The notes beneath the pieces were generated by a model. The model searched no databases. It was given only the letters and a program-made list of their open reading frames with translations, and had not been told where the DNA came from. The position numbers and the translations under genes are program-made. From Chiloscyllium plagiosum (lineage: Eukaryota), in assembly GCF_004010195.1 (NCBI RefSeq), contig NC_057754.1:4787397-4822588 (forward strand): DNA of 35,192 nt, written 5' to 3'. This document shows, piece by piece, positions 1,461-33,853 of the stretch (the first letter of the stretch is position 1; every line of letters starts with the position of its first letter).

Positions 1461-1584
1461 GTTTAGTTCAGAGTGGTGCTGGAAAAGCACAGCAGGATGC
1501 TGCCTGAGCTACTGTGCTCTTCCAGCACCACTTTGATCTAAACTCTGGTTTCCTGAATCTGCAGTCCTCACTTTTGCCGCCTTC
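1461..1584 (+). mobile_element. Short fold-back PLE-terminus derivative (family A; ribozyme core absent)
   Basis: Inverted arms agagtttagttcagagtggtgctggaaaagcacag / ctgtgctcttccagcaccactttgatctaaactct, with 3' tail ctgcagtcctcacttt. Flanked by aaaattacaaga (1449-1460) and aaaattgcaaga (1585-1596). Confidence 0.7.
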
Positions 1585-2537
1585 AAAATTGCAAGATTTA
1601 AATTTATACTACAAAGGATCAGAGTTGCAAGATAATATTTTATGTTGTTGCTCCCAAAGCTGTCTAAACTGTAAAGCATTGGGCAGAGAATAAAGAATGA
1701 AATGCAGGGTTCTTAATTTTCTTTTGCCCTTGTCAAGGTGTAGTACATAGATTAATGTAAAGCAGACAACATCTCCAGGCCTATAATGTGTTAATTCTGA
1801 TGTACGACATTTATGTTTTCTCATGCTGTCTGTCTAATATATTTTCTGAGTGTGACAGCCGTTAGTGCCAACTTGAGCCCCTGTCTGTAGCCTCCTAGGT
1901 TAGATTTAAACTGAGTCAAACATGTTATGTGTACAGCCAGTCAAGGAAGACAGTCCAGGAAGAACTTTGGATCATCAATCTGGGTTAGGTGGACCTGAAA
2001 GAACATTATGCTATGAATCCACTGGATCACCCAACCTCTAAATTGAATACACACCAATTTTACAGGACTGAATGAATTTGTCTGAGAGGTGTAGAGTGTA
2101 ATATGGCCTCCCTTTAATTCCCACAACGTGCTCCACTTGTACATTTATTTTGGCAGCATGCACTTGGTTTTCTGTGCTCATGTGTAACTATTGCTGTTAT
2201 ACCATGCCACTCCAGAATGAATTTCTTAGTCCAATTGCTTGAATAGGCCACTTAAAAATAAATTTCTCTGCTTGTATTCTTGTTTGCTGAGTTATGGGTC
2301 CATGGGTAACTTGCTGTCTGTCTCCACCTTTCACTTGCGAACTTACAAAATGTTGAACTGTGGAGGGCATAACAAGTATGACTGATCCTATCCATGCTTC
2401 TGTGAGCAGGAGAAGAAACCTCAGCAGGTCAGAGATGAAACCTGCTATCCACCTGCTCCACATGTCTCATTTGAGACATAGAAGCAGCTAATTTGGTGAT
2501 TTTTCTGACTATGCCTGAGGTTGTGCACTTATGTTCA

Positions 2538-2599
2538 TGACTAAACAAATCTCTCCTTGTTTTCCAGCTGTGATCAGAGACTGCAAGTTATCCTAAAGG
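2538..2599 (+). other. Splice acceptor and 5'UTR part of the beta-spectrin exon (exon starts 2568)
   Basis: Branch-point-like TGACTAAAC at 2538-2546, pyrimidine tract ctctccttgttttcc, AG at 2566-2567, then 32 nt of UTR before ATG 2600. Implies a non-coding first exon further upstream. Confidence 0.75.
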
Positions 2600-2759
2600 A
2601 TGAGCAGCACAATGTCAACAGCCACAGACTATGACAGCATTGAGATACAGCAGCAATACAATGACATAAATAACCGTTGGGATGCCAATGAGGAGGAGTG
2701 GGACAATGAGAACAGCTCTGCACGACTCTTTGAACGCTCACGTATCAAGGCCTTGGCAG
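2600..2759 (+). CDS. SPTBN2: First coding exon of a non-erythroid beta-spectrin (SPTBN2-like; SPTBN1 not excluded), partial CDS ending in phase 1
   Basis: Translates MSSTMSTATDYDSIEIQQQYNDINNRWDANEEEWDNENSSARLFERSRIKALA, containing the beta-spectrin N-terminal motif WDNxxSSARLFERSRIKALA. An in-frame TAA at 2594-2596 lies just upstream of the ATG. The donor GCAG|GTAGGC at 2759/2760 sits at the conserved phase-1 position before DEREAVQKK. The MSST start and the 5-residue spacer between RWD and WDN resemble SPTBN2 more than SPTBN1 (3-residue spacer). Confidence is for the exon; the paralogue call is weaker. Confidence 0.93.
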
Positions 2760-3223
2760 GTAGGCAGAAAATACTGGTAGGTGAGACTAACAGTTGCAAG
2801 GCAGGAAGGGAAAAATCTACAGCAGAGTGGAGCTGCAAATGAAGAAGAAAGATTCTTCTCTTTTAAATTCCATAAATAGGACAAAACTCAACCATTCCTT
2901 TTTGCTGTTTCTATTGCTGGCTTTCTCTTTTTGAACATGTCGATTTTTACAATGTGGTACAATTCCCTTTCTGGTGTATTGCCAAGTGGCCATCCTTCTT
3001 TCATGAAACTAGGCTGCATCTGATGCTGTATGACTCTGTGGGACATTGTAGTGAACCCTGATCCTATCCTCATGCATTCAGTATTTGCACACTTTCCAAC
3101 AGAGTTCACTGAATGTATTTAAAAGTGGCTATTCTGACTGATTATTCGCCTCCTTACCTCAGGACACCAGGACTAAATATGGGACCCCATATGAAAAATG
3201 GAAACAGAATAGAACTATTTAAG

Positions 3224-3339
3224 AATCACCTGCACTTGAAATGTTTTGCGCCACAGATGCGACAGATCTGCTGAGTTTCGCCAGCAATTTCTACTTTTGT
3301 TTCACATCTCCAGCATCTGCATTTCTATGTTTTATTATG
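3224..3339 (+). mobile_element. Truncated single-arm PLE-terminus fragment (family D)
   Basis: cacagatgcgacagatctgctgagtttcgccagcaatttctacttttgtttc is similar to 22612-22665. Exact 12-bp direct repeat gaactatttaag at 3212-3223 and 3340-3351. Confidence 0.65.
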
Positions 3340-3440
3340 GAACTATTTAAGTTTCAGTGAGTTACAATACTCTCATCCTGATCAGACAGTGTGCGTTGCC
3401 CTATTGCCCTGCACCTGCCTGCCCATCCTCCCTTAAAATA

Positions 3441-3661
3441 GTGAAAACAAAAAATGCTGGAAATCACAGTGGATCAGGCAGCATCCTTAGAGCGAGAAAG
3501 CAAGCTAATGTTTCGAGTGTAGATGACTGTTCATCAGAACTGACAACATCAGCTCTGTTGAAGAGTCATGTAGACTCAAAACATTAGCTTGATCTTTGTC
3601 CAAAGATGCAGCATGACCTGTTGTGATTTGCAACATTTTTGTTTTGTTGCAACAGATCACA
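3441..3661. mobile_element. Fold-back PLE-terminus derivative (family C) with degenerate hammerhead cores on both arms
   Basis: Inverted arms aaaacaaaaaatgctggaaatcacag...aagctaatgtttcgagtgtagatgactgttcatcag / ctgttgaagagtcatgtagactcaaaacattagcttg...gtgatttgcaacatttttgtttt. Weak 8-bp flank ttaaaata at 3433-3440 and 3662-3669. Confidence 0.65.
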
Positions 3662-5221
3662 TTAAAATATGATCTGTTAAGAATGGTCACTTGGGCAATG
3701 TTCCAAGGTGCCCGATGCAAAATGTGGAGAAGAATAGGGGAGAGTTGAATTATTATTGAGTCTTTTAATCATTCTGTTGTATACTGCCATCAGGTGGAAT
3801 TTTTCCTGTCTCTGTTTTTGGTTCCAGTTAATGACGAGTCAAGTATGATGTTCATTGCTCCAGTAAAATTTTGTTTTAAAGCACTGTGTTTGTTCTAGTC
3901 AAATTGCTGTAGACATCTTGCTGTTTGAGTACGTCCAAGCTGCAAATAATTTCAATTGTCTCCTGCCATTTCCCTCATGACTGAAGAGTCCGATGGAAGA
4001 ATGGCGTGGAAGTCCACAGACTGACAGTTCATATTACAATTGTTGGTGCTTAGGGGATCTTTCTCAACTGTGGCACCTCTGCCACATGTTTACAGTTTGG
4101 TGTAGATGGTTCACAAGACACGTTGAACCAAACTTTATTGCTTGTTGCGCAAGGGCTGGTCAGCTGTTGCATTTTCGCAAGAGAGGTGGTCTGCAATGCA
4201 TAAGTGTTTAAAAATTTTTTGAATGCTCTTTTGTTGTTTGTACTCTTTGCTGACAAATGTTTCTTAGTTTTAGTCCTACCTGCTTTAATTTTCAAGTTTC
4301 TATATAGAATTCACTTGATATCCTTTGAAAAGTTGTCTTTCTTAATAAAGTTTTACTCTAACCTTCTGAAGAGGTTAGTTTTGTGTCTTTATAAACAGTC
4401 AGTTTGTTTATGGTGAAACATTTGCTTGATAGCCCGTATGTGAGATTAAAGATGGAGTGTACTTTTCACTTTTTCTGTCTGATCTATGCCTAACTTGAAG
4501 TGAGATGATAATGGTATGTTTTGTCTATGTTATTAAAACAATCATGAAAAGTAATGAGAGCAATATGCAAGTGGAAACATAACTCCACTGTATCTGACTC
4601 AAAACTACCCGACATTATGCAGTACCAAAGCACCTCATCACCACATAGTCTATGCATTGTAGATTTTTAACGATAACATCTGTATCCTATTACAGCAAAG
4701 CTATATATTAGCCACCCAACATGAAAGCATATATTGCTGCAGATACAGAGTAGGTCAGTCAGGATCAGAAAAGGGGAATAAAAGCCTAATATTTCAATCA
4801 CAGACCCTCCTTTGTAACTGAAACTGAAAGTCCCTTGACTGAGAAAAATAAGAACAGGAATGCTTGGGGCATGGGGCTTGTTCATGTATGTGTGAGAGAG
4901 ATATGCACAACAGGAGGAGGAAGGAAATCCAGCTACGAAGGTTTCCCAATACCCATTCTAACTGATAAGATTCTGAGAGGACATGACAGGATAATTGCTA
5001 AGAGTATGTTAATGTGACTAGTGTATGAGAAGCTGCAGAGGCCATGCAGGTTAGTAGTCTCGAGGAGTGGGTGAATGAGAGTGAGTCAGGGAAAATACTG
5101 TATGTAATAATGAGAATGATCAGCCATGATTCACATTCAGAGATGGGTTGCAGTAGACGGATAGAGTGAGTGTGAGATAACTAAGAAAAGATGGAGGCAT
5201 TTAGCCCAATAGAATGATAGA

Positions 5222-5420
5222 GGTCATTGACCTTCTTGTGGCATAGCTGAGCATTCCTCTGGTTGAGACAATAATGACCTGATGCAACTTGGACCTGGTG
5301 GCAGGCCCTGGTGGTATGACTTCCTTTGGCAGTCCTGAGGATGCTCATGGTCTTTTTCTGCATAACCCATCCAGGTCCTTGTCTGCAAAGAGAAGAACCA
5401 ATTTTCCTTTAACTGTCATG
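5222..5420 (-). pseudogene. Decayed Myb/SANT-like ORF of a PIF/Harbinger transposon
   Basis: Minus-strand fragments MTVKGKLVLLFADKDLDGL and QRNAQLCHKKVNDL resemble the RFxDxDLExL and RxxxQCRKKxNDL motifs of Harbinger Myb/SANT (NAIF1/MSANTD-like) proteins; frameshifted. Confidence 0.5.
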
Positions 5421-5938
5421 TCTGGGTCAAATGTCACAAACCATGCAGGGCAGCTCCAGATTGCCAGTGCTAATCTCGAAGCACAATAGCCTTTTAAATA
5501 TAATGCTAGTGTCAGGAATCCAAGGGCACATTCTATGAGTGGCAAGTACTTCCACCCATATTGAATGGGAGAATCAGGCTAGCATCAGATGAGAAGGACA
5601 CTATAGGGGTGTGGTATGCAGTTAATGGGGCAAGCGTGAGCTGATTATGTAAGATCCTTGCAGAGAGAAACCCTCCCTGAACCTAGATGACACTTAGTCG
5701 ATTTCTGGTAAGAGTCAGTCATATGTAACATAGATCTATGTAACATAAGACTACAAACATCCTTTCTATGGAAATCATCAGCCTACACTTTGGTACCTTG
5801 TTCGTTTACGCAGTGACTTGAGGTTGGAAGAGGGTCAATGATTTCAACTCGTGAGCCGACAGTTAAGTATAATACATGCTCACGAAAAATGATTGTGTAA
5901 TTTCATAACAGAATTAGGGCTTCAGACATAGTTAAGAG

Positions 5939-6157
5939 CTGAAAATGTGTTGCTGGAAAAGCGCAGCAGACCAGGCAGCATCCAGGGAACAGGAGAATCG
6001 ACGTTTCGGGCATAAGCCTTTCTTCAGGAATTCCTGAAGAAGGGCTTATGCCCGAAACGTCGATTCTCCTGTTCCCTGGATGCTGCCTGACCTGCTGCGC
6101 TTTTCCAGCAACACATTTTCAGCTCTGATCTCCAGCATCTGCAGACCTCACTTTCTC
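5939..6157 (+). mobile_element. Young fold-back PLE-terminus element (family A): 96-bp inverted arms plus a 31-bp 3' tail
   Basis: Palindrome 5935-6126 centred on GAA|TTC (6030/6031) with 3 mismatches and no loop. Tail gatctccagcatctgcagacctcactttctc. Exact 14-bp TSD gacatagttaagag at 5925-5938 and 6158-6171. Confidence 0.9.
6027..6068 (+). ncRNA. Minimal type I hammerhead ribozyme motif (mirror copy on the minus strand at ~6000-6027)
   Basis: CUGAAGA (6034-6040), A, stem II GGGC-UUAU-GCCC, GAAA, CG, UC, with palindromic ACGU in place of stem III. Stem I pairing is weak. Matches the minimal hammerheads known from PLE termini. Confidence 0.65.
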
Positions 6158-9072: not shown

Positions 9073-9207
9073 CATTGAGTATGACTTTGTGCACAATGAA
9101 ATACAACAGTATCAGTCTCTACATCCAGGTCCAGTAGTTGAGAGCTAGTGCTGTCGTCACTCATTGACTGTAAAATTGTTGGTGCTCGACATGCAAACAC
9201 TTTATTT

Positions 9208-10159
9208 TCAAGATGGTGGCGGAGTAGCAGTGCAATTTGCAGGCACATTAGCCCAGGAGCAAATTGCCCCATCAGGTGCCAGGCCTACACCACCATTCTG
9301 GGCCATTGGAAGTCACCCAGTTGCTGGGTCTGGGCAGGGAGAAGATGCCCTCCATCAAAGTCATTAAAAGGTAAGGTGTCAAAATACATGGAGTCATTAA
9401 AAAAAATCAAAAGAAAGAAAAGGAAAGCAACTTGCTTTCCTTTTCTTTCTTTTGATTTTTTTTAATGACTCCATTTATTTTGACACCTTACCTTTTAATG
9501 ACTTTGATGGAGGGCATCTTCTCCCTGCCCAGACCCAGCAACTGGGTGACTTCCAATGGCCCAGAATGGTGGTGTAGGCCTGGCACCTGATGGGGCAATC
9601 TCCTGGTGTGAAGTTCTCATCCAGGAGAGCAGTCTCCTGGTGTGGTGGCCTCATCCAAGAGGGCAGTCTCCCAGTGTGGTCGTCTCCTCGGAGGTGGGGG
9701 GGTCTCCCGGTATGGCATTCCTGTCCAGGAGGGGCAATCTTGGCCAGGAGTGGTGTACTTGGTTCGGTGTGGAGTCTCATCCCATTGTGGACGTCTTCTT
9801 TGGCGGCTTCCAGGTATTCCAGCAGCCCAGCACAATGGCCTAGCCCTGGCACAGAATTGTTGTCTTAGTGTGGAGGTCTTGATCTTGTTTTGGAGTCTTC
9901 CAGTGGCCCGACGTGGAGGTCTCATCTTGGCGTGATGGGGTAGACTCGGCCTGGTCCTGAGCAATGGTTTTGATCTGGTTTTGCAGCGTACCCTGGACCC
10001 AGAAGCCGTTAATTGAACTGACATAGACTTTTACTTTTGTTTTCTTCTTATTTATGATTTCTGTCATTAATTGAGGCGCCATCGTATGGCAACTTTTAAA
10101 ACACTTCACTGTAGTTTTTTTGTAAAAATACATGTGATAATAAATTGCTATTCTATTCT
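9208..10159 (+). mobile_element. Non-coding retroposon with internal 34-bp tandem units and a Rex1/Babar-like 3' tail, carrying an internal inverted duplication
   Basis: Starts near aagatggtggcggagtag. GC-richer body with 34-bp units gcaRtctccYRgtgtg starting 9595, 9629 and 9663. Tail cacttcactgta...tacatgtgataataaa...attctattct is shared with 690-967. Confidence 0.55.
9263..9599. repeat. Near-perfect 337-bp palindrome
   Basis: Arms 9263-9430 and 9432-9599 (168 bp each), a 1-nt spacer (C9431) and a single mismatch (9387/9475). The ORF track shows the same peptide CPIRCQAYTTILGHWKSPSCWVWAGRRCPPSKSLKGKVSK on both strands. Confidence 0.97.
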
Positions 10160-10160
10160 T

Positions 10161-10827
10161 AGAGTCCCTAAAGTATGGGAACGGGCCATTTAGCCAAACA
10201 AGTTCACACTGACCTGCCTAAGAGCATCCCATCCAGACCCTTCCCCTTACCCTATATATTCCATGGCTGTTACACCTAATCTATGCATCCCTAGACACTA
10301 TGAGGCAATTTAGCAAGGCCAGCCCACCTAACTTTGGACTCCACCCTATCTTTGGACTGTGGGAAGAAATGGGGTGGCACGGTGGATCAGTGATTAGCAC
10401 TGCTGCCTCACAGCGCTGGGGATCCGGGTTCGATTCCACCCTTGGGTGACTGTCTGCGTGGAGTTTGCACATTCTCCCCGTGTCTGTGTGAGTTTCCTCC
10501 CACAATCCAAAGATGTGCAGGTTAAGTGAATTGGTCATGCTAAATTGCCCATAGTGTTCAGGGATGTGTAGGTTAGATGCATTAGTCATGGGTAAATGTA
10601 CAGCAATTGGGTCTGGGTGAGTTGCTCTTCGGAGGGTTGGTGTGGACCTGTTGGGCCAAGGGGCCTCCTTACACACTGTAGAGATTCTATATAAACCAGA
10701 GCACCCAGAGGAAACTCACACAGACATAGTGAGAACATGCAAACTCCGGGAAGACAGTTGTCCAAAGATGGAATTGAACCTGGGTCTCTGGTGCTGTGAG
10801 GTAACAGTGCTAACACTGAGCCACCGT
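10161..10827 (-). mobile_element. tRNA-derived HE1/V-SINE-type SINE (outer copy, split by a nested copy)
   Basis: Minus-strand head acggtggctcagtgttagcactg (A box) and ggttcaattcc (B box) at ~10770-10827, central ggagtttgcatgttctc domain, and tail at 10161-10369. attctatt-like sequence on both flanks. Confidence 0.85.
10371..10690 (+). mobile_element. tRNA-derived HE1/V-SINE-type SINE (inner copy)
   Basis: ggcacggtggatcagtgattagcactgctgcctcacag (A box), ggttcgattcc at 10427-10437 (B box), V-domain gtggagtttgcacattctccccgtgtctg, and LINE-like tail ending ctgtagagattctat. Confidence 0.9.
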
Positions 10828-11469: not shown

Positions 11470-12513
11470 AATTGTTATATAGAATGTCCACAGACAGGAG
11501 ATTCTGCGGCAGTGAGCATGAATCTGGGATAGTATGTTGCTTTTCTGTTGCTCGGATTAAGGACATCTCAAAATGTTTGAAGCATATTTTTAAAGGAGAG
11601 AGTAAGAACTTGGAAATTATTGTACACATTAATAAGGATAACATAGTTAGGGAAAAGATTAAGGGTTTACAGAGTGAATGTATGAGGTTAGGTAGAAGAT
11701 TAAAAAACAAATCCTCAAAAGTAATAATGTCCAGTTTACTCCCAGTGTTAAGCGTGAATGAAGGAAGGAATAAAAGGATAAAGAAGGTAGATCAGTGGCT
11801 GAAGAGATGGTTAATGTTCAGGGATTTGTGTCTTTGGATCATTGGGATACCTTCTGGGGTGAAAAGACCTTTTCAAATAGCATGGGTTTCGCTTAAACTG
11901 GAAAGGGACCAATATCCTAGTGGAAGATTTATTAGTTCTGTTAAGGGAGACTGTAAACTATGAGGGATAGGGGACTTGGGGTTGGGGGCAGCGTTTGGGT
12001 GGAAGTGGCGGTGGATCCTAAGTTGCAGAGCAAACAGAAAGATAGATGAGGATGGTTCTGAATCTGACAAGAACAAGTTAATTAGAAAAGCCAGACAAGA
12101 CCCAAATCAGAGAACGAAGTTACTCTGAAGAATTAAACTGCACTTATTTCAATACAACGGTTCTGACAAGTAGGACTGATGTTATAGGAAGGATAGAAAG
12201 GGGGGCAGAAGAGGAGGGGGAGTGATCCTTTTGATTCAGGAAAACATTACTACTATAATCAGAGAAGAAATTTGTAAAAAAATCGTCCAGTGAAAATATA
12301 TGGATGGAAATTAGAAATAAAAATTGTTACCTTGCTAGGATTGTACTATAGGACCCCCGTTAGCCAGAGAGAAACTGAGGAACAGATATGAAGAGAGATC
12401 GCACATATATGTAAGAATAATAAGGTTGCAATAGTAGGTGATTTTAATTTTCCAGAAATTGACTGGAACTACCATAGCGTTAAAGGTTTGGATGGTGAAG
12501 AATTTGTTGAATG
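11470..12513 (+). mobile_element. CR1 LINE fragment: ORF1 (SGNH esterase-like) plus start of the ORF2 AP-endonuclease
   Basis: STDRRFCG...VCCFSVARIKD...IIVHINKDNI...VIMSSLLPV...GRN...WLKRW matches the CR1 ORF1 esterase. Followed by LNCTYFN, RKDRKGGRRGGGV, GLYYR and VGDFNFPEIDW; degenerate. Confidence 0.88.
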
Positions 12514-13326
12514 TCATGGAGTTATAGAGATGTACAGCATGGAAACAGACCCTTCGGTCCAACCTGTCCACGCCGACCAGATATCCCAACCCAATCTAGT
12601 CCCACCTGCCAGCACCCGGCCCATATCCCTCCAAACCCTTCCTTTTCATATACCCATCCAGGGTATATGAATGTTGCAATTGTACTAGCCTCCATCATTT
12701 CCTCCGGCAGCTCATTCCATACACGTACTACCCTCTGCATGAAGAAGCTGCCCCTTAGGTCTCTTTTATATTTTCCCCTCTCACCCTAACGCTGTGCCGT
12801 CTGGTTCTGGATTCTCCTATCCCTGGGAAAAGTCTTTGTTATTTATCCTATCCATCCCCCTCATGATTTAATAAACCTCTATAATGTCACCCCTCAGCCT
12901 CTGACGCTCCACGGAAAACAGCCCCAGCTTATTCAACCTCTCCCTATAGCTCAAATTCTCCAACCCTGGCAACATCCTTGTAAATCTTTTCTGAACTCTT
13001 TCAAGTTTCACAACATCTTTCCGATAAGAGGTAGACCAGAATTGCACGCAATATTCCAAAAGTGGTCTCAGCAATGTCCTGTACAGGCGCAACATGACCT
13101 CTCAACTCTTGTACTCAATACTCTGACCAATAAAGGAAAGCATACCAAATGCTTTCTTCACTATCCTATCTACCTGTGATTGTACTTTCAAGGAGCTATG
13201 AACCTGCACTCGAAGGTCTCTTTGTTCAGCAACACTCCCCAGGACCTTACCATGAAGTGTATAAGTCTTGCTAAGATTTGCTTTTCCAAAAGTGCAGCAC
13301 CTCACATTTATCTAAATTAAACTCCA
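12514..13326 (-). mobile_element. CR1 LINE 3' portion (end of ORF2 and 3'UTR)
   Basis: EFNLDKCEVLHF, EQRDLRVQVHSSLK, LYRTLLRPLLEYCVQFWS...LERVQKRFTRMLPGL...YRERL and RVVRVWNELP, with a 3'UTR ending ccatgctgtacatctctata. Confidence 0.93.
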
Positions 13327-13787
13327 ACCCTCGCGCCCCCAACGCCATCCAACACCGCACCCCGCAGCCAGACTGTACACCAACAGTAAGACTGCTGCTG
13401 CCTTTGAAGGGTAAGTCTCCAAATAGAACATCTACACACACACACACACACAACTTTTTGACAGGTTCCACCTCTGCCCTGTACAGAACAGTGTTGGAGA
13501 GATTATCTGGGGAAGGGGGATTTAGGCTACACCCCTGTGTAGAACTCCAGGGAAAGTGTGGGGGGAGAGAGAGAGAGAGGGTGGGAGATCAGTCATTTAT
13601 AGACAGTGCCTGGACTGTTCAGGACTGTTCTTGGCAGCATTTCAGTGAGCCGAGTTCGTTTTTAATCATTGTACCTGTAAACAAAAGACGCGATCAGGGT
13701 TGAAACAGCTCTTTGACGTAATGTTTCTATTGGGACCTTGAGATCCTCTTCGGTTAATCCGATATTCGGATAATCGAGGTTTGTCTG
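13327..13787. mobile_element. One-ended Tigger/pogo-like (Tc1/mariner) non-autonomous DNA element
   Basis: Right end reads TA|CAGACAAACCTCGATTATCCGAA on the minus strand (TA at 13788-13789), a Tigger-like terminal inverted repeat (TIR) with subterminal cggataat-like repeats. No matching left TIR seen. (AC)n at 13434-13452. Confidence 0.55.
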
Positions 13788-13789
13788 TA

Positions 13790-14180
13790 CTGAATTAGAA
13801 AATTTTCTTGTACACGCTTTACAAATTCCTCTCCATTTAAACCCTTAACACTATGGCAGACCCAGTCTATGTTTGGAAAGTTAAAATTCCCTATCATAAC
13901 CATCCTATTATTCTTACAGATAACGGATCTCCTTAGAAATTTGTTTCTCATTTTCCCGCTGACTATGATAGGGGTCTATAATCCCAATAAGGTGATCATC
14001 CGTTTCTTATTTCTCAGTTCCACTCAAATAACTTCCTTGAATGTATCTCTGGGAATATCTTCCCAAGTACAGCTGTAATTGGTATCCCTTATCAAAAACA
14101 TCACCCCCCCCCCCCCCCCCCCCCTCTCTCTTGCCTCCCTGCCTGTCCTTCCTGTACCATTTGTATCCTGGAACATTAAG
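13790..14180 (-). mobile_element. CR1 ORF2 endonuclease fragment
   Basis: LNVPGYKWYRKDRQGGKREGG and IGNFNFPNIDWVCHSVKGLNGEEFVKRVQENFLIQY; poly-C at 14104-14124. Confidence 0.88.
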
Positions 14181-17432: not shown

Positions 17433-17636
17433 GGTGAAAGTGAGCAGTGAAGATGCTGGAGATTAGAGTCAAGATTAGAGTGTGTTGGAAAAGCACAGCA
17501 GGTCAGGCAGCATCTGAGGAGCAGAAAAATCGATGTTTCGGGCAGGAACCCTTCATCAGGCTCCTGCCCGAAACGTGATTTTCCTGCTCCTCAGATGCTG
17601 CCTGACCTGCTGCGCTTTTCCAGCACACTCTAATCT
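17433..17636 (-). mobile_element. Fold-back PLE-terminus element (family A variant)
   Basis: Tail gaaagtgagcagtgaagatgctggag on the left. Arms agattagagtgtgttggaaaagcacagcagg... / ...cctgctgcgcttttccagcacactctaatct. Minus-strand CUGAUGA-A-GGGU-UCCU-GCCC-GAAA-CA-UC. TSD caacaccaaagtaa (17419-17432) / caataccaaagtaa (17637-17650). Confidence 0.85.
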
Positions 17637-17958: not shown

Positions 17959-18155
17959 TAAAGTCAGAAGTCACATGACACCAGGTTATAATCCAACAGG
18001 TTTATTTGAAATCATAAGCTTTTGGAACACAATCCCTTCATCATGTGACTTGCATTGTGAAAGCTTGCGATTTCAAATAAACCTGTTGGCATTATAACCT
18101 GGTGCCGTGTGACTTCTGACTTTGTCCACCTCAGATCAACACTGGCACCTCCACA
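17959..18155 (+). mobile_element. Fold-back PLE-terminus element (family B, homologous to the PLE end at 18548-18665)
   Basis: Arms aaagtcagaagtcacatgacaccaggttataatccaacaggtttatttgaaatc / gatttcaaataaacctgttggcattataacctggtgccgtgtgacttctgacttt. TSD ttaatgtaggga (17947-17958) / ttgatgtaggga (18156-18167). Confidence 0.82.
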
Positions 18156-18630
18156 TTGATGTAGGGAGGCAGAGAAAGGGACAGAAAGAAGGGGATAGCG
18201 GTTTGGTGCTTCTGCACTATTTGTTCAGGTATTGTGGTTAGTCAGTTAGAATCCATCAGAGCAATCTTCTGATTGACAATCCACAAGATGACTTGCTGCT
18301 TTCTCTACAGGGGCAGCTAACTAGCAGACATCCAACACTAAGTTAATGGTTTTCTAATTGTTCCACAGACAACATCTGTTGCAGGCATAACATTAATGCA
18401 TAATGTTAATGTTTGCTGAAGTTAATGGAATAGTAGATATCTAATTCTGAAACTCACATTTAGAATATTCTCCACTATTTACACATTTTTTGCTGTTGTT
18501 TCATACAAATTGTAGTTAATTATAATTTTCATTTTATTCTATATTCGGTGATGCCAGTGTTGGACTGGGGTGTACAAAGTTAAAAATCACACAACACCAG
18601 GTTATAGTCCAACAGGTTTAATTGGAAGCA

Positions 18631-18665
18631 CACTAGCTTTCGGAGCGACGCTCCTTCATCAGGTG
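18631..18665 (-). ncRNA. Minimal type I hammerhead ribozyme motif in the PLE terminus
   Basis: CAC-CUGAUGA-A-GGAGC-GUC-GCUCC-GAAA-GC-UA-GUG: stem I CAC/GUG, 5-bp stem II, palindromic AGCU at stem III. Predicted cut between 18634 and 18633. Confidence 0.78.
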
Positions 18666-18882
18666 ATTGTGGAGGGCTTGATCGTAACACAGAATTTATA
18701 GCAAAAATTTGCAGTGTGATGTAACTGAAATTATACATTGAAGAATTGATTGTCTGTTAAGCCTTTCATCTGTTGGAATACAGTGATAGTTTCACTTCTT
18801 TCATGTGTAAATCACAAAACCCTTTTTTTAAAAGTTGCATTCTCGGGTTAGCTGTTAACAATGGTGATAGCGAGACAATATG

Positions 18883-19644
18883 NNNNNNNNNNNNNNNNNN
18901 NNNNNNNNNNNNNNNNNNNNNNNNNNNNNNNNNNNNNNNNNNNNNNNNNNNNNNNNNNNNNNNNNNNNNNNNNNNNNNNNNNNNNNNNNNNNNNNNNNNN
19001 NNNNNNNNNNNNNNNNNNNNNNNNNNNNNNNNNNNNNNNNNNNNNNNNNNNNNNNNNNNNNNNNNNNNNNNNNNNNNNNNNNNNNNNNNNNNNNNNNNNN
19101 NNNNNNNNNNNNNNNNNNNNNNNNNNNNNNNNNNNNNNNNNNNNNNNNNNNNNNNNNNNNNNNNNNNNNNNNNNNNNNNNNNNNNNNNNNNNNNNNNNNN
19201 NNNNNNNNNNNNNNNNNNNNNNNNNNNNNNNNNNNNNNNNNNNNNNNNNNNNNNNNNNNNNNNNNNNNNNNNNNNNNNNNNNNNNNNNNNNNNNNNNNNN
19301 NNNNNNNNNNNNNNNNNNNNNNNNNNNNNNNNNNNNNNNNNNNNNNNNNNNNNNNNNNNNNNNNNNNNNNNNNNNNNNNNNNNNNNNNNNNNNNNNNNNN
19401 NNNNNNNNNNNNNNNNNNNNNNNNNNNNNNNNNNNNNNNNNNNNNNNNNNNNNNNNNNNNNNNNNNNNNNNNNNNNNNNNNNNNNNNNNNNNNNNNNNNN
19501 NNNNNNNNNNNNNNNNNNNNNNNNNNNNNNNNNNNNNNNNNNNNNNNNNNNNNNNNNNNNNNNNNNNNNNNNNNNNNNNNNNNNNNNNNNNNNNNNNNNN
19601 NNNNNNNNNNNNNNNNNNNNNNNNNNNNNNNNNNNNNNNNNNNN
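18883..19644. other. Assembly gap (N run)
   Basis: Run of N next to (TG)n-rich sequence. Confidence 0.99.
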
Positions 19645-19740
19645 CGTCTGTGTGTATCTGTGTCCGTGTGTATGTGAGAGTGTGTGTGTGTAGGAATATC
19701 TCTGTGTGTGTGTGTGTGTGTAGTGCAATAGTGATAATAT

Positions 19741-20124
19741 GTAATGTGACATGAACCCAAGGTCCCGGTTGAGGCCCTCCCTATGGGTACCGAACTTAGC
19801 TATCAGCCTCTGCTCGGCCACTTTCCTCTGCTGCCTGTCCCGAAGTCCACCTTGGAGGATGGTCACCCGAAGGTCCGAGGCTGAATGTCCTGGACCACTG
19901 AAGTGTTCCCCAACTGGGAGGGAACCCTCCTGTCTGTTGATTGTTGTGCGGTGCCCATTCATCCGTTGTCGTAGCCTTTGCTCGGTTTCCCCAATGTACC
20001 ATGCCTCCGGGCATCCCTGGCTGCAAAGTATAAGATAGACAATGTTGGCTGAGTCACATGAGTACCTGCAATGTACACGGTGGGAGGTGTTCCCACGCGT
20101 AATAGTGGTATCTATGTCCACAAT
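19741..20124 (-). pseudogene. PLE GIY-YIG endonuclease domain (truncated ORF end)
   Basis: CDSANIVYLILC..CPEAWYIGETEQRLRQRMNGH...VGEHF...H...AEQRLIAKFGT...GLN matches the PLE GIY-YIG signature. The RT domain is absent because of 5' truncation. Confidence 0.9.
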
Positions 20125-22488
20125 CCACAATTTTATTCTAGTCTGTTAAAAATTAGCTGCTGACAGAGTGATGTCAGAGAGTCTCCTGGAGTGACTTCTG
20201 ATGCCAGCTTAGGTGACAAAACTGAGATTGGGAAACAGGTTTGTGGAATATCCCACTGTTAGAAATTTCAAATGCCCTTGCTACCTATTACGGGCATCTG
20301 CATTTGTCTGATAAAAATGAGATGAGAAGTTATAAAAACCAGTGGAAGTAATATAATGTGAGCCTATTCAAAAAAGTGGTACCAAGTGGTTTCCACATTT
20401 AGGTGGAATTTGGTGTATCTCCCAAGGTGGAAAGCTTGGCAAGGGGGTGCCAAATTGTGCACAGGGCCTAAGAATGGTCTCATGATGGTGGGATGAAATT
20501 ATGACCTTAGGTTCTTGTAGATTTCAAGGTAGCTTGAATTTTCTGACAGCAAGTCGAGAAGCACTTTTACAAGCAACTAAAAGTAATGAATGCACATTAT
20601 CATTTAAAATAAACAGAATTAAGTACATCTTTTCAATCAAACTATCTGGGAATGAGAAACATATGCCTTCGGATTCATCACTGTAAATAAGGGATGTGCA
20701 GCAGGCAAGGTAATTAGCCTGTTATAATTAGAATGAGTAGCAAGTGCCTTTTCCTGCATATTTTATTGATCAACCTATTCAGAGTTATTATTACACAACT
20801 CTGGAGAAGTGAGACTCAAACTCGGGCCTCCTGATCTAGAGGTAGAGGCACTACCACTTCCCCACAAGAACCCATCTACTTTTTTCTATTTGGTGAGTGT
20901 TGACTGTGATCAGGTTATGACAGTCAAAAGGCTATAAGAGTTGTCCAAGGCATGGACAGAGGGAGTGAGGAGAGCTGTACTATATGGGGCAGTGGACAGT
21001 GTTATCTTGGGCAGGGAGATGTGCAGAGGAAGGCAGGAGGCAAGCAAGTTGCAGTTTAAGAGGAAAGACAGGCTGTCTGAGCTAGGAGAGAAAGAGTACA
21101 CCTGCAGCCGAAGGGCATGGAAGGACTGCCCACGGCGGGGAGTGAGATAGGGAAGGAGGCTACTACGTGGTAGAGAACCAGCGCAAGGGTGTAGGGCAAA
21201 TGGAGGAGGGAAGGGCTTAGTGTTTGGGTGTGCTGAATCATCATGGGGTGAGGGAGTGACTCCCCAGGCACAGATGGTTTGAAAAGGTAGAGTTAGTGCT
21301 GGAATTTGAACTGAGGGTCTTAGGCAATGGAAGGAACACTGATAGTGAGGGGAGAGTGGAATGCTCAAGGTGGTAGGTGCAGGTGATGGCTAGTTATCAG
21401 ATGTCCTGTCAGCTGGAGAATAGGTGGCATGGATAGTGAAAGCATTCAGGGTCATGGTGAACATGGGGATTTTAATAGGCATAGGCTCAGTGGCAACAGA
21501 AGGTACGTAAAGGATTATGGTTATTGTTTCAAGGGTAACAGAGGAGAGATAAATGGTAACATTAGATTAGTCAACAATAATGTGGAAAGTTGGTAGGTAA
21601 TGGGAAAGGTGGAAAGTGTGGAGAGTGTTTGGAATATAACATGCACGTGAAATGACTTCTTGAAAGTTTAGTTGCTGAACGATCCTTCAAAGATGAGAGA
21701 AAGATAGTTTTAGTTGGATAAAATTAATGGTGAGCGCAATGGACTGGCTAAAGGAATGCTGTAATAATCATTAGTTAAATAACATATATGAGGCTGCTTT
21801 GTATTATAAGATCCCAAGTAATTGAGGGTAACATGTCAGCATGGATAGAGGATTGGCTAACTAATACAAGATAGAGAGTTGGGCTAAGGGGGGCATTTTC
21901 AGAATGGAAACCTGTAACTAATGGAATACCACAGAGATCAGTGCTGGGGTCCAATTATTTACAATATTTATTTGTGACTTGGATGAGAAAAATAAATGTA
22001 CCATTGCCAAGTTTGCAGATGACATTAAAATAGATGAATGGGCAAAAAATAGATGAACGGGCAAGTGGTGAGGATAACACAAGGGGATTGATGAGGGACA
22101 TTGACATCTTAAGTGAGTGGGCAAAATTGGCAAATGGAATAGTATTTGGGAAGATCTGAGTTACGCAAATTAGCAGAAAGAATAGAGGAACTGCATGTTA
22201 TTTTAAAATAGAAAGGCTGCAAAAAGCTGAGTTGATCCATGAACCACAAAAAAAAAACTAGCATACAACTTTAGTACCTAATTGGAAAGGCAAATGGAAT
22301 GTTGACTTTTGTCTTGAAGGTAATGGAGTAGAAAAACAAGGAAGTATTGTTAATACTATACAAGGCACTAGACAGACCAGATCTTGAATACTGTGAACAG
22401 TTTTGGTCCCCTTATCTAAGGAATGATGTCTTGGCATTGGATGCAGTGGAGAGAAGATTCACCGATGCTGATCCCAGGTATGGAGGAA

Positions 22489-22689
22489 ACAAAAACAGAA
22501 ATTGCTGGAGAAACTCTACAGTTTTGGCAGCAACTTTGGAGATGAAACAGAGTTAATGTTTCAGGACCAGTAGGCTTTATTCGGTTCTGAAATGTTAACT
22601 CTGCAGGCTCTTCACAGATGCTGCCAGACCTGCCGAGTTTTTCCAGCAGTTTCTGTTTTTGTTTCAGAATTGCGTTTTTTTGTTTTATT
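22489..22689 (+). mobile_element. Fold-back PLE-terminus element (family D) inserted in CR1
   Basis: Arms gaaacaaaaacagaaattgctggagaaactc...agagttaatgtttca / tgaaatgttaactct...gagtttttccagcagtttctgtttttgtttc. Exact 15-bp TSD ccaggtatggaggaa at 22474-22488 and 22690-22704. Confidence 0.82.
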
Positions 22690-23011: not shown

Positions 23012-23470
23012 TTAATGATTGGAGCCAGGGTCAGATAGATCTCATTGCTGTGAGGTTCTTGATTGGGGTTGTTAACCTGAGCCAGGCAGGAAGTGCTGGC
23101 TGACAGATTTAAACAGGAGATTCAGAAGGTCCCCTCAGTCTAGGCACTGGTTTTAAGTTGGCTGGCGACAGCCAGTGTACTGTGAGTGGAGTTTCTGCTG
23201 GAGAGATTTTGATTGTGACTGTGTGCTTCCGGTTCTGCTGCTGCTTTTGCAGGTGTTAAACAAAAAGGAGATTCAGAAGGTCTCTTCCGTCTAAAGACTG
23301 GCTTTCATCCGGCTAGTAGTAAGAAAAGGAACAAAAATAACCGAGAGATTCAGTAGATCTCCTCAAACTAAGGACTGGCCTTGAGCTGGCTGGTCACAGC
23401 CCTGTGCAGTGCTAATATAAATAAATGGTGACTTGGTGACAGGATACCGGCCTCTGTGCGTGTTTTCTCA
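23012..23470 (+). mobile_element. Solo LTR inserted in the CR1 3'UTR, with a triplicated internal motif
   Basis: Flanked by tgagg (23007-23011 and 23471-23475), ends in CA, has AATAAA at ~23420, and carries three copies of gagattcag(a/t)ag..c....tcta.g.actgg at ~23117, ~23267 and ~23345. Lacks a clean 5' TG. Confidence 0.72.
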
Positions 23471-25154
23471 TGAGGATTATCAGATCAATCATAATCACAT
23501 TGAACGGCAGAGTAGACTTGATGGGCTGAATGGCTAACTTCTGCTCCTGTGTCTTATAGTCATCTGATACTCCCTTGGAGGGAAGATGACACTTGCTTAA
23601 GACAGTTACCTGCACATGGAGTCTTTTGATGTGGGGAGGCTGTTGTGCTGCACTTTCATAGGTGGGCTTTGGTTTAGATTAGGAGGTAGAGGAGAGGAAA
23701 AAGAGACTGTTTTGAATATAGTGGCTGAGAGAGAAGGTGAGACCTTACTAATGGTATGGGTGAAGTTTAGAGGAAGGAGAGACATGCTTTTAGAGCCACA
23801 GTTGGTGATGGAAGGGAAAGAGAGGCCCTCAGCAGTGGAAATGGATAGGAAATTGAAATTGATAAAATAATACAACTTCCTTTGTTATTAGTGTGAAAGT
23901 ATTTTTCAGGAAAGTTAACTGATGAATAATTACACTAGAAATAAGTTTAATGTTTTTACTAAAATAGAGATCTTTGCCTGTTGGGTATATATATCGGGAA
24001 TTAGGACTTGTTCAGAGCATTGAGGTGTCCCAAAGTTCCACTTAGTGTTGTACTTTGCATTGCATTTATAGTATGTTTAATAACAATGTCAAATTTGACT
24101 TGCCTTATGCATTATATTAATTGTCCTCCATTCTGCTTGTATTCTCTTTGTTAAAACCAAAACTCTTGGCACAATTTCCAATCATATTTATTCTCCCAGA
24201 ACTCAAGAGTAGTGGAACCCCACAGCCAAGATGTCATGCTTCTGAAAACTAGGCATCAGCTAGTCATGCCTTTTTACCTTGTTTTCTTTCACTCCTTACA
24301 ATTCTGCTGGTACTAAGTAGTACTGTAAAGATGGTCCTTCACCAAAATAAAAATCACTGTAAAGTCTTATAGTTAAAATGGCATTGTGGACACATAACCT
24401 ACATCTAATACAAAATACTGCAGATATTGGAAATCTGGAATTAATATAAAAAATGCTTGTAAATTCCAAGCTGCCACAGATGTTGAAATCTTGTACTTAC
24501 AAATAGAAATCACTGCAAATGTTTAGCAAGACAAGTAGATCTGTTGCGACAGAAACATAGTTAGCAATTCAGTTTCATGAGAATGTCTTAATAATGTACT
24601 AACTCTGTATTGCCACAAATGCTGCTGGAGCTTGAATCTTGGTGAATAGCTAGAGCTACATTTATGTTGTTTAGGATATCACTTGATTGGTTACGTTGTG
24701 TTACCGACCTGTAATCTATGCTTATTTGTTCATCTAGAAGGAACTAGACATCTGACACTGAAATATATACAGTTTCATCTTTACCTGTTACAGCATGCAT
24801 AGTCACCCAGATTAGCTGTCTCATTAGCCTTTATGGCCTTTTCCTTAAATGAGAAAACACAGCAGATTGTATGAGCATTTTACCTGCAGCTATATCTATT
24901 CAGATAGTGAGGGAGAGAGCTAGAGCATCAGCACGTGAGTAATGCAATTAAAATTAAACCTTTAGTTGCTGTTGGTGGGAACAAGATTTACTGCAGCACA
25001 TTAAGCTGGCAGAATGCTGGCTATTCACACAAACTATCTTCAATCTCAATTGAGCCAAATTACTTTTCAGAAAGTTGTATTGAGTGAAACTGAAGTTTTC
25101 AATCACCCTTAAAACAGAAAAACAATTTTCTGTAAAGGATTGCATTTTAAAAAT

Positions 25155-26420
25155 AACAACTTGTAATTATATAGTACCTTTACCATAATAAAAAATCCTA
25201 AGTCTTTTATTTGTCATTTATATAAATGATTTAGATGAGAATGTAGAAGGCATGGTTATTAGGTTTGCAGACAACACCAAAATTGGTGTCATAAGTAGAC
25301 AGTAAAGAAGGTTTTCTAAGATTACAAAGGCATCTTGATCAAATGGGTCAAAATGGGCTCAAAAATAGCAAGTGGAGTTTAATCTGGATAAATGCAAGCT
25401 ATTGCATTTTGGTAGAACAAACAAGGTAGGGCATGTATGATTAATGGTAGGGCCTTGGGTAGAGTTTTAGAACAGAGGGACCTAGGAGTTCAGGTTCATA
25501 ATTCTTTGAAGTTGTGTCACATATAGAAAAGGTGGTTGGCATGCTTACCTTCATTGCTCAGTGTAGGAGTTGGAAAGTCATGTTGAGGTTGTTCAGTATA
25601 TTGGTAAAGCCTCTTCTGGAATACTGTGTCCAATTCTGGTTGCCTAGTTATAGAAAGGATATTATTAAGCTGGAGAGGGTTCAGAAGAGATTTACTAGGA
25701 TGTTACTGGGTCTGGAAGGTTTGAGTTATAAAGGAATGCTGGATAGGCTGGGACTTTTTTCACTGCAGCGTAGGAGGTTGAGCGATGACTAATGAAAGTT
25801 TATAAAATCATGAGGGGTACAGGTATGGTGAATTGCAGGTATCTTTTCCCGAGGGTAGGGATTTCAAGACTATAGGGCATATTTTTAAGGTGAGAGGAGA
25901 GAGATTTAAAAAAGATATGAGGGGCAAATAATTTTACACAGAGTGGTTCCTGTGTGGAATGAACTTCCTGAGGAAGTGGTGGATGTAGATACAATTACAG
26001 GGTTTAAAAGACCTTTGGATACTTCATGAATAGGAAAGGTTTGGAAGGACATGGGCCAGGAGCAGGCAGGTGGGACTAGTTTAGTTTGGGATTATATTTG
26101 GCATGGACTGGTTGGACCGAAGAGTCTGTTTCATGCTGTATGACTCTGACTTGATGACATGAGCTTTACAAAGCAAAATTTGTAACCCACATAAGGATAC
26201 ATCAGTTGGATGACTTAGACTTTAGTGAAGAGACATGTTTCTAAGGAGTGTTTAAAGGAAGTAAGACAGCCGGAGAGTTTTCAAAGGAAATTCATGAGTT
26301 TAAGGCTTTGGCAGCTGAAGGCACCAATGGTGGAGTGATGAAAATCAGAAATGTGATTGGAAGAGTGTAGAGATAGATCTTTGAGAGTTGAAAGATTAGA
26401 GATCATAGAGTTAGAGAAGC
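25155..26420 (-). mobile_element. Old L2-like 3' end split by the CR1 above (pieces ~25155-25208 and ~26161-26420)
   Basis: acaacttgtaattatatagtaccttta...aag..ttta resumes as gctttacaaag...aggagtgtttaaagga...ggcagctgaaggcac. Recalled similarity to L2 tails; a related plus-strand copy lies at 34280-34438. Confidence 0.4.
25210..26159 (+). mobile_element. 5'-truncated CR1 LINE (end of RT and 3'UTR)
   Basis: VIYINDLDE...RFADNTK, EFNLDKCKLLHFG, PLLEYCVQFWLPSYRKDIIKLERVQKRFTRML; 3'UTR ggaccgaagagtctgtttcatgctgtatgactct. Confidence 0.93.
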
Positions 26421-26603: not shown

Positions 26604-26813
26604 GGGAAAGTGAGGTCTGCAGATGCTGGAGATCAGAGCTGAAAATGTGTTGCTGGAAAAGCGCAGCAGGTCAGGCAGCATCCAGGGAACAGGAGAATCG
26701 ACGTTTCGAGCATAAGCCCTTCCTGAAGAAGGGCTTATGCCCGAAACGTCGATTCTCCTGTTCCCTGGATGCTGCCTGACCTGCTGCGCTTTTCCAGCAA
26801 CACATTTTCAGCG
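26604..26813 (-). mobile_element. Young fold-back PLE-terminus element (family A), opposite orientation to 5939-6157
   Basis: Nearly identical to 5939-6157, with the tail gaaagtgaggtctgcagatgctggagatc on the left and a shortened centre (gcccttcctgaagaagggc). Intact hammerhead core on + at 26723-26750. Exact 15-bp TSD cttttcttttaaaac at 26589-26603 and 26814-26828. Confidence 0.9.
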
Positions 26814-28496: not shown

Positions 28497-28628
28497 GAAC
28501 AAAGAACTGCAGATTCTGGAAATCTGGAGCAAAAACAGAATTTGCTGGAGCAACTTGGCAGGTCTGTCAGCATTCTTGGAGAGATAACAAGAGTTAATGT
28601 TCTGGGTTCTGTAAACCCTTCTTCAGGA
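28497..28628 (-). mobile_element. Single-arm PLE-terminus fragment (family D) ending at a degenerate hammerhead core
   Basis: aactgcagattctggaaatctgg..caaaaacagaatttgctggag...agagttaatgtt...cccttcttcagg; similar to 22489-22565. Confidence 0.6.
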
Positions 28629-29275
28629 CATAAGGACCTCCCACAATTTCTGTCATTGTTTGTGAACTTTCTGTTTGTGAACTTTCAGTAACTTATTTCA
28701 AAGAGGCACTTTGAAGTATTTTTACAAAACCTGAAATAAGTCAATTTTCCACAATAATTTAAAGCTAACTTGCTTCAAGCAATATTATATATAAAGCATC
28801 CTTGTAACACTAGTTACAAAATTCAGAGAAGTCTTGGAAACCAGTCAGCAGTAAGGATATTTCCACTTTGTGAAAGTTTGATGATCTTCTGTGGGTTAGT
28901 CAGGAATGTTGCTAATTCAAAATGTGACAGACAGCTTTGATCATTTATAAACATTTAATGGTTTCTTTTAAACTTGAAATTCAAACAGATTTTATCAACA
29001 CCAAGTAAGTACATAGCTGAGTGTAAAGTTTGATTTTTGTGCATTGGTGCAAAGTGGGTGATAATTGGCAGACTACTATTTTTCCCCTCATTTTTAGGTT
29101 TGCTTTGGCTCTGTTGCAAAAAGTCACAGTCATCTTCAGTGAATGTCAACGAGTCATTTTGTGATACTTGGAACACATTTAGATTTCAAACTCCATTCTG
29201 TTTTATAATTTTGATTTGGACTTTTTTTTCTTTCACCGTCCAAAATACGTGTCTTCACATAGTTTAGAAACCACT

Positions 29276-29630
29276 TAGGAACATAAGAACATGAGTAGGT
29301 CATTCAGCCCTTCGAGTCTACTCCACCTTTTAATACGAACATGGCTGATCGAACATTTAAATGCCTTTTATCCATCCCCAATCACCCTATATAAGCACTG
29401 GTAATCAAACCTTTATTAATCTTTAGCTAAAACATACTCAAAGACTAAGCCCCTGTGGTAGACAATTTGAAAGGTTCACGGCCCTCTGAATAAAAACAAA
29501 ATTCTTCCTAGCTCAGACCTAAGCGGCATCCCTCATATTTATAAATTGTGCTCTATAGTTCAAGACTTGCCAACCAGAGAAATATTTTATTGCATCTACC
29601 CTGTGTACCCTTTTGAGTATTTTGTAAATT
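29276..29630 (-). mobile_element. Old CR1 LINE 3' end
   Basis: acataagaacatgagtaggtcattcagcccttcgagtctactccacc...catggctgatc is the reverse complement of a CR1 3'UTR. Confidence 0.7.
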
Positions 29631-32260: not shown

Positions 32261-32645
32261 GTGGTGGCATTGTGATAATATCATTGGACTAGTAATTCAG
32301 AGTGCCAGGCTAATGTTCTTGGGATATAGTTTCAAATTCCACTATGGCAGTTTCTGAAATTTGAATTGAATAAAAATCTGGAATTGAAAGCTTGCCTGAT
32401 GGTGACTGTTGATTTTTATAAAAACCCATTGGTTTACTAATGTCCTTCAGGGAATAAAATCTTCTATCCTTTTCTGATCTGGCTTAATGTGACTCCAGAC
32501 CAATAGCAGTGCAGTTCATGCTTAACTGTCCTCTGAAATGGCCTAGTAAATCACTCAATTCCAGGTCAGTTAGGCAAATTAGGATGGTCAATAAATGCTA
32601 GGCTAGCTAGCAAACGCATATCCCATGAGCATATACTAAAAAAAA
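32261..32645 (+). mobile_element. tRNA-derived SINE (second family)
   Basis: A-box-like tggcattgtgat, B-box-like gtttcaaattcc, body gtgactccagacc...cttaactgtcctctgaaatggcctag, and A-rich end; related copy at 33960-34256. Confidence 0.7.
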
Positions 32646-32789
32646 AGGTCCTTGTGGTCTATAAATACAGAAAGAGATTTCACAGATTTTTTTGCCTCTA
32701 TGAATTGATATTTGTGTTATTTTTAATGGTTGACCAGCTCATATCAAAAGGGAGTAGACTGACCAAGTAGTTGCTTAAAAAAAGGAAGT

Positions 32790-32956
32790 TAGCATGGAAT
32801 GCATTATCCCAGGAGGCTATTGAGGCAGAAGCTGCAATATTTTAAACAGAATTTGATGGGATTTGAAAAGAGGGAATAGAAAAGGATAGGAATGACAGAC
32901 AAGAGGACTGGAAGAGAAAATGCAGATCAATTTATTTTCTTGTGCTGTAAATCATG
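32790..32956 (+). mobile_element. Very old CR1 3' fragment
   Basis: tggaatgcattatcccaggaggctattgaggcag (WNAL...EA) ... ttcttgtgctgtaaatc. Confidence 0.4.
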
Positions 32957-33661
32957 AGTTCTCAAACTGTGGGTTGCACATCTTATGGTGTGGCAGAAGT
33001 CACACTTGAAATTCTGAGCTGCACCTCCTCATATTTTAAACAAATAATACTTTTACAAGTGCTTTAAAACACAGATTCTCCTGTTCACACAATGTCTATA
33101 TATGTTGAACTATAGACTGCAAACTTCAATATAATTGTTCATTGAATGTTTGCTGCTTAGTTGCTCTTTTATTTTTACTGACAACTGGGATCTTGTAGAT
33201 TTTCAGGTGTTAAAATGATGTCACATTTTCAAGTGGTTGGGGTTAAGCATTGCTGAAAATTCTGTAATTCTATAATAGCCAAATACTGTCAACTGGTTCT
33301 TCTTGAACATTACTTATCTGTTATCTTTGCTGCAGTTTTCTGAATTGAAACTCTCCCTCTTTACTGTATCTGGTTTCCTCTCTACTGTCTTTTCTCCTCT
33401 TAGCCATATCTCTTCTTTCTCTGCCTGGTAATGACATCATTAGTCTCAATTCAATCATCATTGCTTTTGTCTAATTATAGTCCAAACTATAGTCCAACTA
33501 GAGGGTACAAAATTCAGGAAAACTGTTAAAAAGGTTTAATACTGTCACCATCAGTATATCAAGAGTATGGAATCCATGTACAAGAGTAATAGGGAATATG
33601 AACCTTTAAGTTGTACTGAAGTCTATTTATGTGATTATACATAATAAACATGACCATGATC

Positions 33662-33853
33662 AGTTGAAAAGTGTGATGCTGGAAAAGCACAGCAAGTCAG
33701 GCAGCATCTGACGAGTAGAAGAGTCGACGTTTCAGACATAAGCCCTTCGTCAGAAATGTCCTTGGATGCTGCCTGACATGTTGTGTTTTTCCAGGGCTAC
33801 ACTTTTAGATTGATCCTCCAGCATCTTTAGTCCTCACTTTCTCTGAGTTGCTG
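33662..33853 (+). mobile_element. Older fold-back PLE-terminus element (family A)
   Basis: Left arm aaaagtgtgatgctggaaaagcacagcaagtcaggcagcatc...tcgacgtttcagacataagcccttcgtcag, right arm gatgctgcctgacatgttgtgtttttccag, tail ctccagcatct..agtcctcactttctc. TSD atgaccatgatc (33650-33661) / atgaccttgatc (33854-33865). Confidence 0.78.

Follow-up and report, generated by a model that had tools for sequence, protein, structure and literature searches.

Short fold-back inserts in Chiloscyllium plagiosum as probable ultra-short insertions of Penelope-like elements

What gives rise to short inserts that consist of two inverted arms and recur along a shark chromosome? We addressed this question in a stretch of 35,192 nucleotides from Chiloscyllium plagiosum (contig NC_057754.1, positions 4,787,397 to 4,822,588; hereafter the window). 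A preliminary description of its sequence had listed seven such hairpins and proposed that they were either mass-produced ultra-short insertions of Penelope-like elements (PLEs) or a retrozyme-like RNA family mobilized by PLE proteins. Our analysis favors the former: the hairpins appear to be ultra-short PLE insertions, each made anew by two-ended target-primed reverse transcription with run-off at the 5' end of the RNA, a reading to which we assign a probability of roughly 60%. 

All seven hairpins were found where they had been placed, with inverted arms of 37 to 101 nt that were 80 to 96% complementary and a total size of 120 to 220 bases. Each lay between the two copies of a target site duplication, scored with at most one mismatch; the duplications spanned 12 to 18 bp, a wider range than the 12 to 15 bp first reported, and flank matches of at least 12 bp occurred in 13 of 400 random window pairs. 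The asymmetric tail of about 30 nt proved to be one-sided, as described, with a wider range of 24 to 42 nt. Rather than about four sequence families, we found three groups, two of which (A and C) are related in sequence. Family A comprises 1461..1584 (+ strand; short arms, no hammerhead core; 12-bp duplication 1449-1460/1585-1596), 5939..6157 (+; symmetric; 14-bp duplication 5925-5938/6158-6171), 17433..17636 (-; 14-bp duplication 17419-17432/17637-17650), 26604..26813 (-; 15-bp duplication 26589-26603/26814-26828), and 33662..33853 (+; 12-bp duplication 33650-33661/33854-33865). Family B is represented by 17959..18155 (+; 12-bp duplication 17947-17958/18156-18167). Family C includes 22489..22686 (+; 18-bp duplication 22471-22488/22687-22704, 15 bp of which are exact) and two copies with a single arm and a tail, 3224..3336 (+) and 28497..28625 (-; starting at a decayed core). 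Both had been listed as single-arm relatives; 3224 has a 15-bp duplication (3209-3223/3337-3351), and for 28497 the arm and tail were confirmed but no flanking duplication was found. An older fold-back at 3441..3659 (+) is a relative of family C with a tail of about 10 nt, and its flank is indeed weaker, with a match of only 10 bp (12.5% by chance). The ten fold-back or single-arm inserts total 1805 bp, or 5.2% of the non-N window. The duplications and flanks inspected were AT-rich (56 to 91%), and no clear symmetric target motif was seen among them. An assembly artefact was ruled out for the seven hairpins because their arms differ by 4 to 20% and every hairpin has its own duplication.

The ribozyme cores were identified with a strict pattern of our own (CUGANGA, stem II, GAAA, NN, UH). 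This motif search, one of the checks proposed in the preliminary description, gave five hits in the window versus a mean of 0.12 (maximum of 2) in 100 shuffles. Four hits lie in the named hairpins, in agreement with the claim that several carry the core near the turn: at 6034 (+) in 5939, at 17559 in the tail arm of 17433, at 26723 (+) in the tailless arm of 26604, and at 33753 (-) in the tailless arm of 33662, the tail arm of which has no hammerhead. The fifth, at 18662, belongs to the PLE described below. The second core of 5939 (6027, -) has a single stem II mismatch. The remaining cores are not intact, with two changes in 17959 (18044, -), mutations in both decayed cores of 3441 (3537, - and 3555, +), and decay in 22489. 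The core is nevertheless conserved across copies, and stem II covaries, since five different sequences retain pairing (family A, family B, 17959, 3441, and 28497), which marks the terminal repeat as carrying a minimal type I hammerhead. GAAA is followed by two palindromic bases (15.2-16.2), CG in family A and GC in family B, a feature known from the minimal hammerheads of PLEs (PMC4209133). The shark cores also share with these minimal metazoan ribozymes an extra base before stem II, the G10.1-C11.1 pair, and the lack of helix III. In Schistosoma, opposite-strand hammerhead pairs lie 100 to 700 bp apart (PMC4209133), whereas the shark pairs are 0 to 20 nt apart, within duplication-bounded hairpins, and have a stem I of 2 to 4 bp. 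A covariance-model search against Rfam (E up to 10) returned 25 matches, none of which reached its gathering score or belonged to a hammerhead family; these sub-threshold matches were microRNA-like.

The link to PLEs comes from a coding element at 18542..20129 (-), absent from the preliminary description. It consists of a GIY-YIG endonuclease fragment, a 762-N gap, a 3' untranslated region, a hammerhead, an arm, and a tail, and we infer that it is continuous across the gap because an exact 11-bp duplication (18531-18541/20130-20140) bounds both ends. The endonuclease fragment (19738..20124, -) is 77% identical to the shark protein P0003, which bears a reverse transcriptase (RT) domain (RVT_1); the window copy itself is 5' truncated. 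Of 126 candidates compared with 19735-20130 (-), 35 were homologs, the best being 92% identical (Chiloscyllium punctatum). Pfam gave no match for the fragment, and its identity comes from these homologs. The close relatives P0002-P0004 carry a Cx5CxxC linker before the endonuclease, and the window copy is cut just after it. Since Cx2-5CxxC linkers are typical of Neptune and Nematis (PMC8557442), the family B element is, by the linker of its close relatives, of the Neptune or Nematis type. The hammerhead of the PLE end (18633..18662, -) is intact, with a 5-bp stem II and a 3-bp stem I. Hairpin 17959, about 400 bp away, is 79 to 81% like 18552-18666, the 3' end of this truncated PLE. Among three metagenome loci with a related endonuclease, two had a matching hammerhead downstream, and the third ended too soon. 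Thus, the family B terminus belongs to an element with a C-terminal GIY-YIG endonuclease and a CCHH motif, in the window and at two outside loci. The proposed link to PLE open reading frames (ORFs) therefore stood for family B and was not found for families A and C, which, judging from the shared anatomy, are likely to derive from relatives of the family B element.

That anatomy is the one published for PLEs, namely, an inverted 5'-truncated copy and a one-sided tail of 30 to 40 bp (PMC8557442; PMC3846280). As in EN+ PLE insertions such as Pen2a_Av, the shark hairpins have head-to-head ends, a tail at one end, a duplication of variable length, and a palindrome or overlap at the turn. Unlike these insertions, they have no ORF or spacer between the arms, recur about once per 4 kb, and have ends that cluster at the edge of the hammerhead.

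The position of the turn was read by eye in eight hairpins (the seven named ones and 3441). Each arm has the geometry of an antisense copy that starts at one end of the duplication and proceeds toward the middle. In seven of the eight, the exception being 1461, the end of the longer arm lay ahead of the core by 0 to about 14 nt; this arm was tailless in four hairpins and tailed in one, two others being symmetric. The start of the shorter arm relative to the core was variable, at about -4 (5939), -6 (3441), +5 (26604), +9 (17433), +16 (22489), +20 (17959), and +39 (33662). All five family A hairpins differ in their centers, the arms overlap by 2 to 3 nt at five turns, and the turn of 5939 is a perfect palindrome. 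In the seven named hairpins, the target matched the continuing template at the outer tailless end by 3, 4, 0, 3, 3, 2, and 4 nt; overlaps of at least 3 nt were thus present in five of seven, versus 6% in a simulation (p 1.7e-5). Hairpin 3441 (overlap of 0) was excluded from this test on account of its weak duplication. In the few window copies, an extra G at arm ends was indistinguishable from junction overlap.

For family B, ends were mapped beyond the window by aligning contigs from three public DNA runs to 401 bp of the PLE end. The runs provided 94,122, 54,880, and 79,514 contigs (counts saturated in two), which supports the high abundance suggested by the preliminary description without being a copy number. 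Summed depth was 8 to 14 million over the arm, 3 to 4 million over the hammerhead, and 1 to 2 million upstream; its use as a copy number was likewise rejected. In all three runs, loose ends with unrelated AT-rich flanks clustered at 18574-18579 and 18543-18557 (best 18 of 1166 loose-end rows), which are the tailless and the tailed end classes, respectively. These two clusters agree with the two start sites observed in vitro for the anole PLE protein PAc (PMC11167929). Past 18543-18557, the tail of one subfamily continues into ATG and then A-rich sequence, possibly an ORF start directly behind the outer start site. Among the best 15 of 124 strand-switch or step joints, five strand switches occurred at five different position pairs, with the longer side ending 1, 2, 3, 9, or 11 nt ahead of the core and the shorter side at 18613, 18620, or 18631. 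Joints 18670>18579 and 18671>18576 (1 to 4 contigs per run) form head-to-tail units of 92 to 96 nt with a whole hammerhead. Separately, joint 18613>18578, a 36-nt step back within the arm seen at high depth in all three runs, suggests a subfamily with an internal duplication.

A TATA-like box (18694..18700, -) precedes the core by 38 nt in the window and by 39 nt in locus L002, and a loose initiator-like A is present at -8 in the window, L002, and L003, predicting an RNA start near 18670. This position coincides with the head-to-tail joints.

These observations are best explained by the following scheme. The 11- to 18-bp duplications suggest that the endonuclease of the element nicks both strands at that spacing. 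The tailed arm would result from cDNA synthesis primed by one nick at the outer start site, and the tailless arm from priming by the other nick at an inner site 24 to 42 nt upstream, aided by the 2- to 4-nt pairing seen as overlap. Copying would begin near the 5' end of the mRNA and run off 0 to 14 nt ahead of the core, where ends pile up, thereby setting the short length. The two cDNAs would then join via the 2- to 3-nt overlaps, one arm often being clipped. Since the arms cross the ribozyme cleavage site, the template RNA was uncut. Such a product should be a dead end, because its cores lie on opposite strands and are buried by the hairpin. In vitro precedents come from PAc, a Poseidon protein, which cleaves both strands and extends each of them, initiates at two internal positions that delimit the tail, and copies RNA that has not been cut; shortening this RNA at its 5' end also shortens the products (PMC11167929). 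AT-rich targets are a further likeness. The shark elements differ by the linker of their relatives, by a tail located ahead of rather than within any visible ORF, and by the primer overlap at the inner site. Hairpin products were not described for PAc in the excerpts of PMC11167929, and the open-access literature searched yielded no report of fold-back stubs in sharks or of two-ended priming by PLEs. Two papers describe the origin of the inverted ends and of the tails of PLEs as an open question (PMC8557442; PMC11167929). The inverted copy, the tail, the duplication, and the hammerhead layout are already published, and the two-primer run-off mechanism is what we infer here.

In L1 twin priming, the second nick serves to prime another cDNA on the RNA via short homology, producing an inversion within one duplication. 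The two L1 cDNAs copy different parts of the RNA, whereas both arms of the shark hairpins copy the same short stretch, resulting in an inverted duplication.

Several points weigh against two-ended priming with run-off. Families A and C account for six of the seven named hairpins and have no ORF link, as tblastn of the window found only the one endonuclease fragment; the genome-wide turn points cover family B only; and 1461 has no hammerhead core. Scans of viral contigs with the hammerhead pattern and with the family C motif were empty. The initiator match at -8 is loose, no TATA box is present in locus L003, and the fly promoter is TATA-less with a start well upstream (PMC2377424). The anole PLE initiates without homology to the cut DNA (PMC11167929). 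Alignment breaks may account for three of the five strand-switch rows, those that use 18631, a position adjoining a subfamily indel. The upstream depth also indicates that many family B copies reach beyond the proposed stop. Finally, 26604 could be derived from a 5939-type center by deletion of a 3-bp repeat, and later central deletions could account for all of the arm asymmetry. Because such deletions mimic variable turns, the window data alone are compatible with a master hairpin.

An extension of two-ended priming is more tentative, with odds somewhat below even. A dimeric enzyme would prime both strands of a staggered cut at the front of the mRNA and run off, yielding mass-produced "strong-stop" DNA, and template jumps would generate the 92- to 96-nt two-hammerhead units, a direct birth route for retrozymes. 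Such head-to-tail units of family B would fit the definition of retrozymes and may seed them.

Among the alternatives, the one that survives best, albeit as an unlikely one, is that the same two-ended priming, or a single priming event, starts from the 3' repeat of full transcripts and that the RT stalls at the hammerhead fold. The 5' edge of the core is indeed where ends accumulate, folding predicts stem II in the plain, non-folded-back PLE end (probability of 0.87, with a cost of 3 kcal/mol for the core), and many copies extend upstream. The stop is located beyond stem II, however, at or past the weak stem I of 2 to 4 bp, and it coincides with a TATA box 30 nt upstream in the window and L002, though not in L003.

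Slightly less probable is a snap-back mechanism, in which one cDNA folds and copies itself or self-priming occurs on an antisense RNA, as has been suggested for PLEs of rotifers. Palindromes at inverted junctions have been interpreted as self-priming (PMC3846280), as could be the palindrome of 5939, and overlaps between ends are expected on joining as well. Snap-back from the tailed cDNA requires the tailed arm to be the longer one, but the tailless arm is longer in four of the eight hairpins, and the fixed tailless end is not predicted.

We consider it improbable that the hairpin is itself a non-autonomous element, similar to a retrozyme or a short interspersed nuclear element (SINE), that is transcribed and reinserted by PLE proteins, and the retrozyme-like half of the original proposal was thus not upheld. 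The density is high (10 inserts in 35 kb), 5939 and 26604 are 92% alike, head-to-tail joints exist in family B elsewhere, and a derivation of retrozymes from PLE repeats has been reported (bioRxiv 10.64898/2026.07.22.740005). Like non-long-terminal-repeat retrozymes, the hairpins are noncoding, PLE-related, and equipped with a type I hammerhead. Retrozymes are, however, head-to-tail tandems with two or more ribozymes on the same strand (PMC7761336; bioRxiv 10.64898/2026.07.22.740005), whereas the hairpins are head-to-head and the window contains no same-strand pair of cores. A text search of the bioRxiv report found inverted forms only in one reference title. The hairpin fold is also predicted to bury the core: the stem II probability was 0.00 in three young hairpins and 0.20 in 33662, and the predicted cost of forcing the core was 26 to 39 kcal/mol in the three young hairpins and 6 to 21 kcal/mol in three older ones, so that ribozyme folding in the transcript is not expected. 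The turn points differ between copies, and 5939 and 26604 have no arm-specific variant in common, in a comparison of two copies only.

MITEs (miniature inverted-repeat transposable elements) of a DNA transposon, suggested by the long inverted arms, the absence of ORFs, and the density, are largely refuted, since the duplications are long and variable instead of short and fixed, the repeat stops short of the terminus on the tailed side, a single-arm copy with a duplication exists (3224), and the sequence is that of a PLE end.

The window is, as judged from a coding exon at 2597..2760 (+; PDB beta-spectrin chains, E 1.2e-19), a beta-spectrin locus, and the inserts downstream of this exon are probably intronic because the exon matches beta-spectrin N termini. 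Three decayed pieces had also escaped the preliminary description: an A/C-type arm at 4722..4812 (-; nhmmer E 1.6e-08), a tail-like piece at 24411..24463 (-; profile search, E 0.0015), possibly part of an old fold-back at 24408-24655 with a 9-bp flank match, and an A/C-type arm remnant at 34448..34500 (-; profile search, E 0.00026). A near-perfect palindrome at 9253-9606 (173-nt arms, 98%, 1-nt loop) lies where an unrelated repeat, apparently stopping near 10158, has its 5' end. The palindrome has no hammerhead core, no flanking duplication was found for it, and either an assembly artefact or a duplication by fold-back could explain it. Two SINE-type copies, presumably tRNA-like, lie in opposite orientations at 10304-10827, as computed from their inverted match. 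Long interspersed nuclear element (LINE) fragments occupy 12186-14140 and 25373-26160: 12186-12507 and 13821-14140 are an inverted pair, 12511-13326 and 25373-26160 match at 70%, and hairpin 22489 seemingly lies inside a similar fragment. An open frame of 163 codons (11472-11963) with a weak OSK (SGNH-like) match (E 0.00075, below the cut-off) is likely a LINE ORF1 remnant. At 23111-23401, a unit of 45 to 57 nt is present in three diverged direct copies.

Searches for PLE relatives elsewhere yielded one 1.3-kb locus with an ORF only among genome contigs and no match of viral contigs to the PLE protein alignment. This locus (L004:3-1271) holds a PLE RT and endonuclease relative (62% identity), comes from a bivalve gill-symbiont genome record, and is probably host DNA in the assembly. 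Six shark gene models of ordinary genes (P0008, P0017, P0020, P0025, P0034, and P0036) contain this PLE endonuclease fragment of the window, pointing to misannotation or exonization.

The layout and the ribozyme being known, the surprise is limited, and the value of the hairpins lies in a testable mechanism rather than in a new class of elements. Because they make up about 5% of the window, annotation can mistake them for MITEs or microRNA precursors, and they would form long double-stranded RNA in host pre-mRNA. If two-ended priming with run-off is correct, the PLE insertion reaction has no simpler complete product than these stubs, which offer precise predictions (nick spacing, two start sites, and the RNA 5' end) for an existing in vitro system. 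Should the strong-stop extension also hold, the genome would record the RNA start, both priming sites, and the geometry of the cut many thousands of times.

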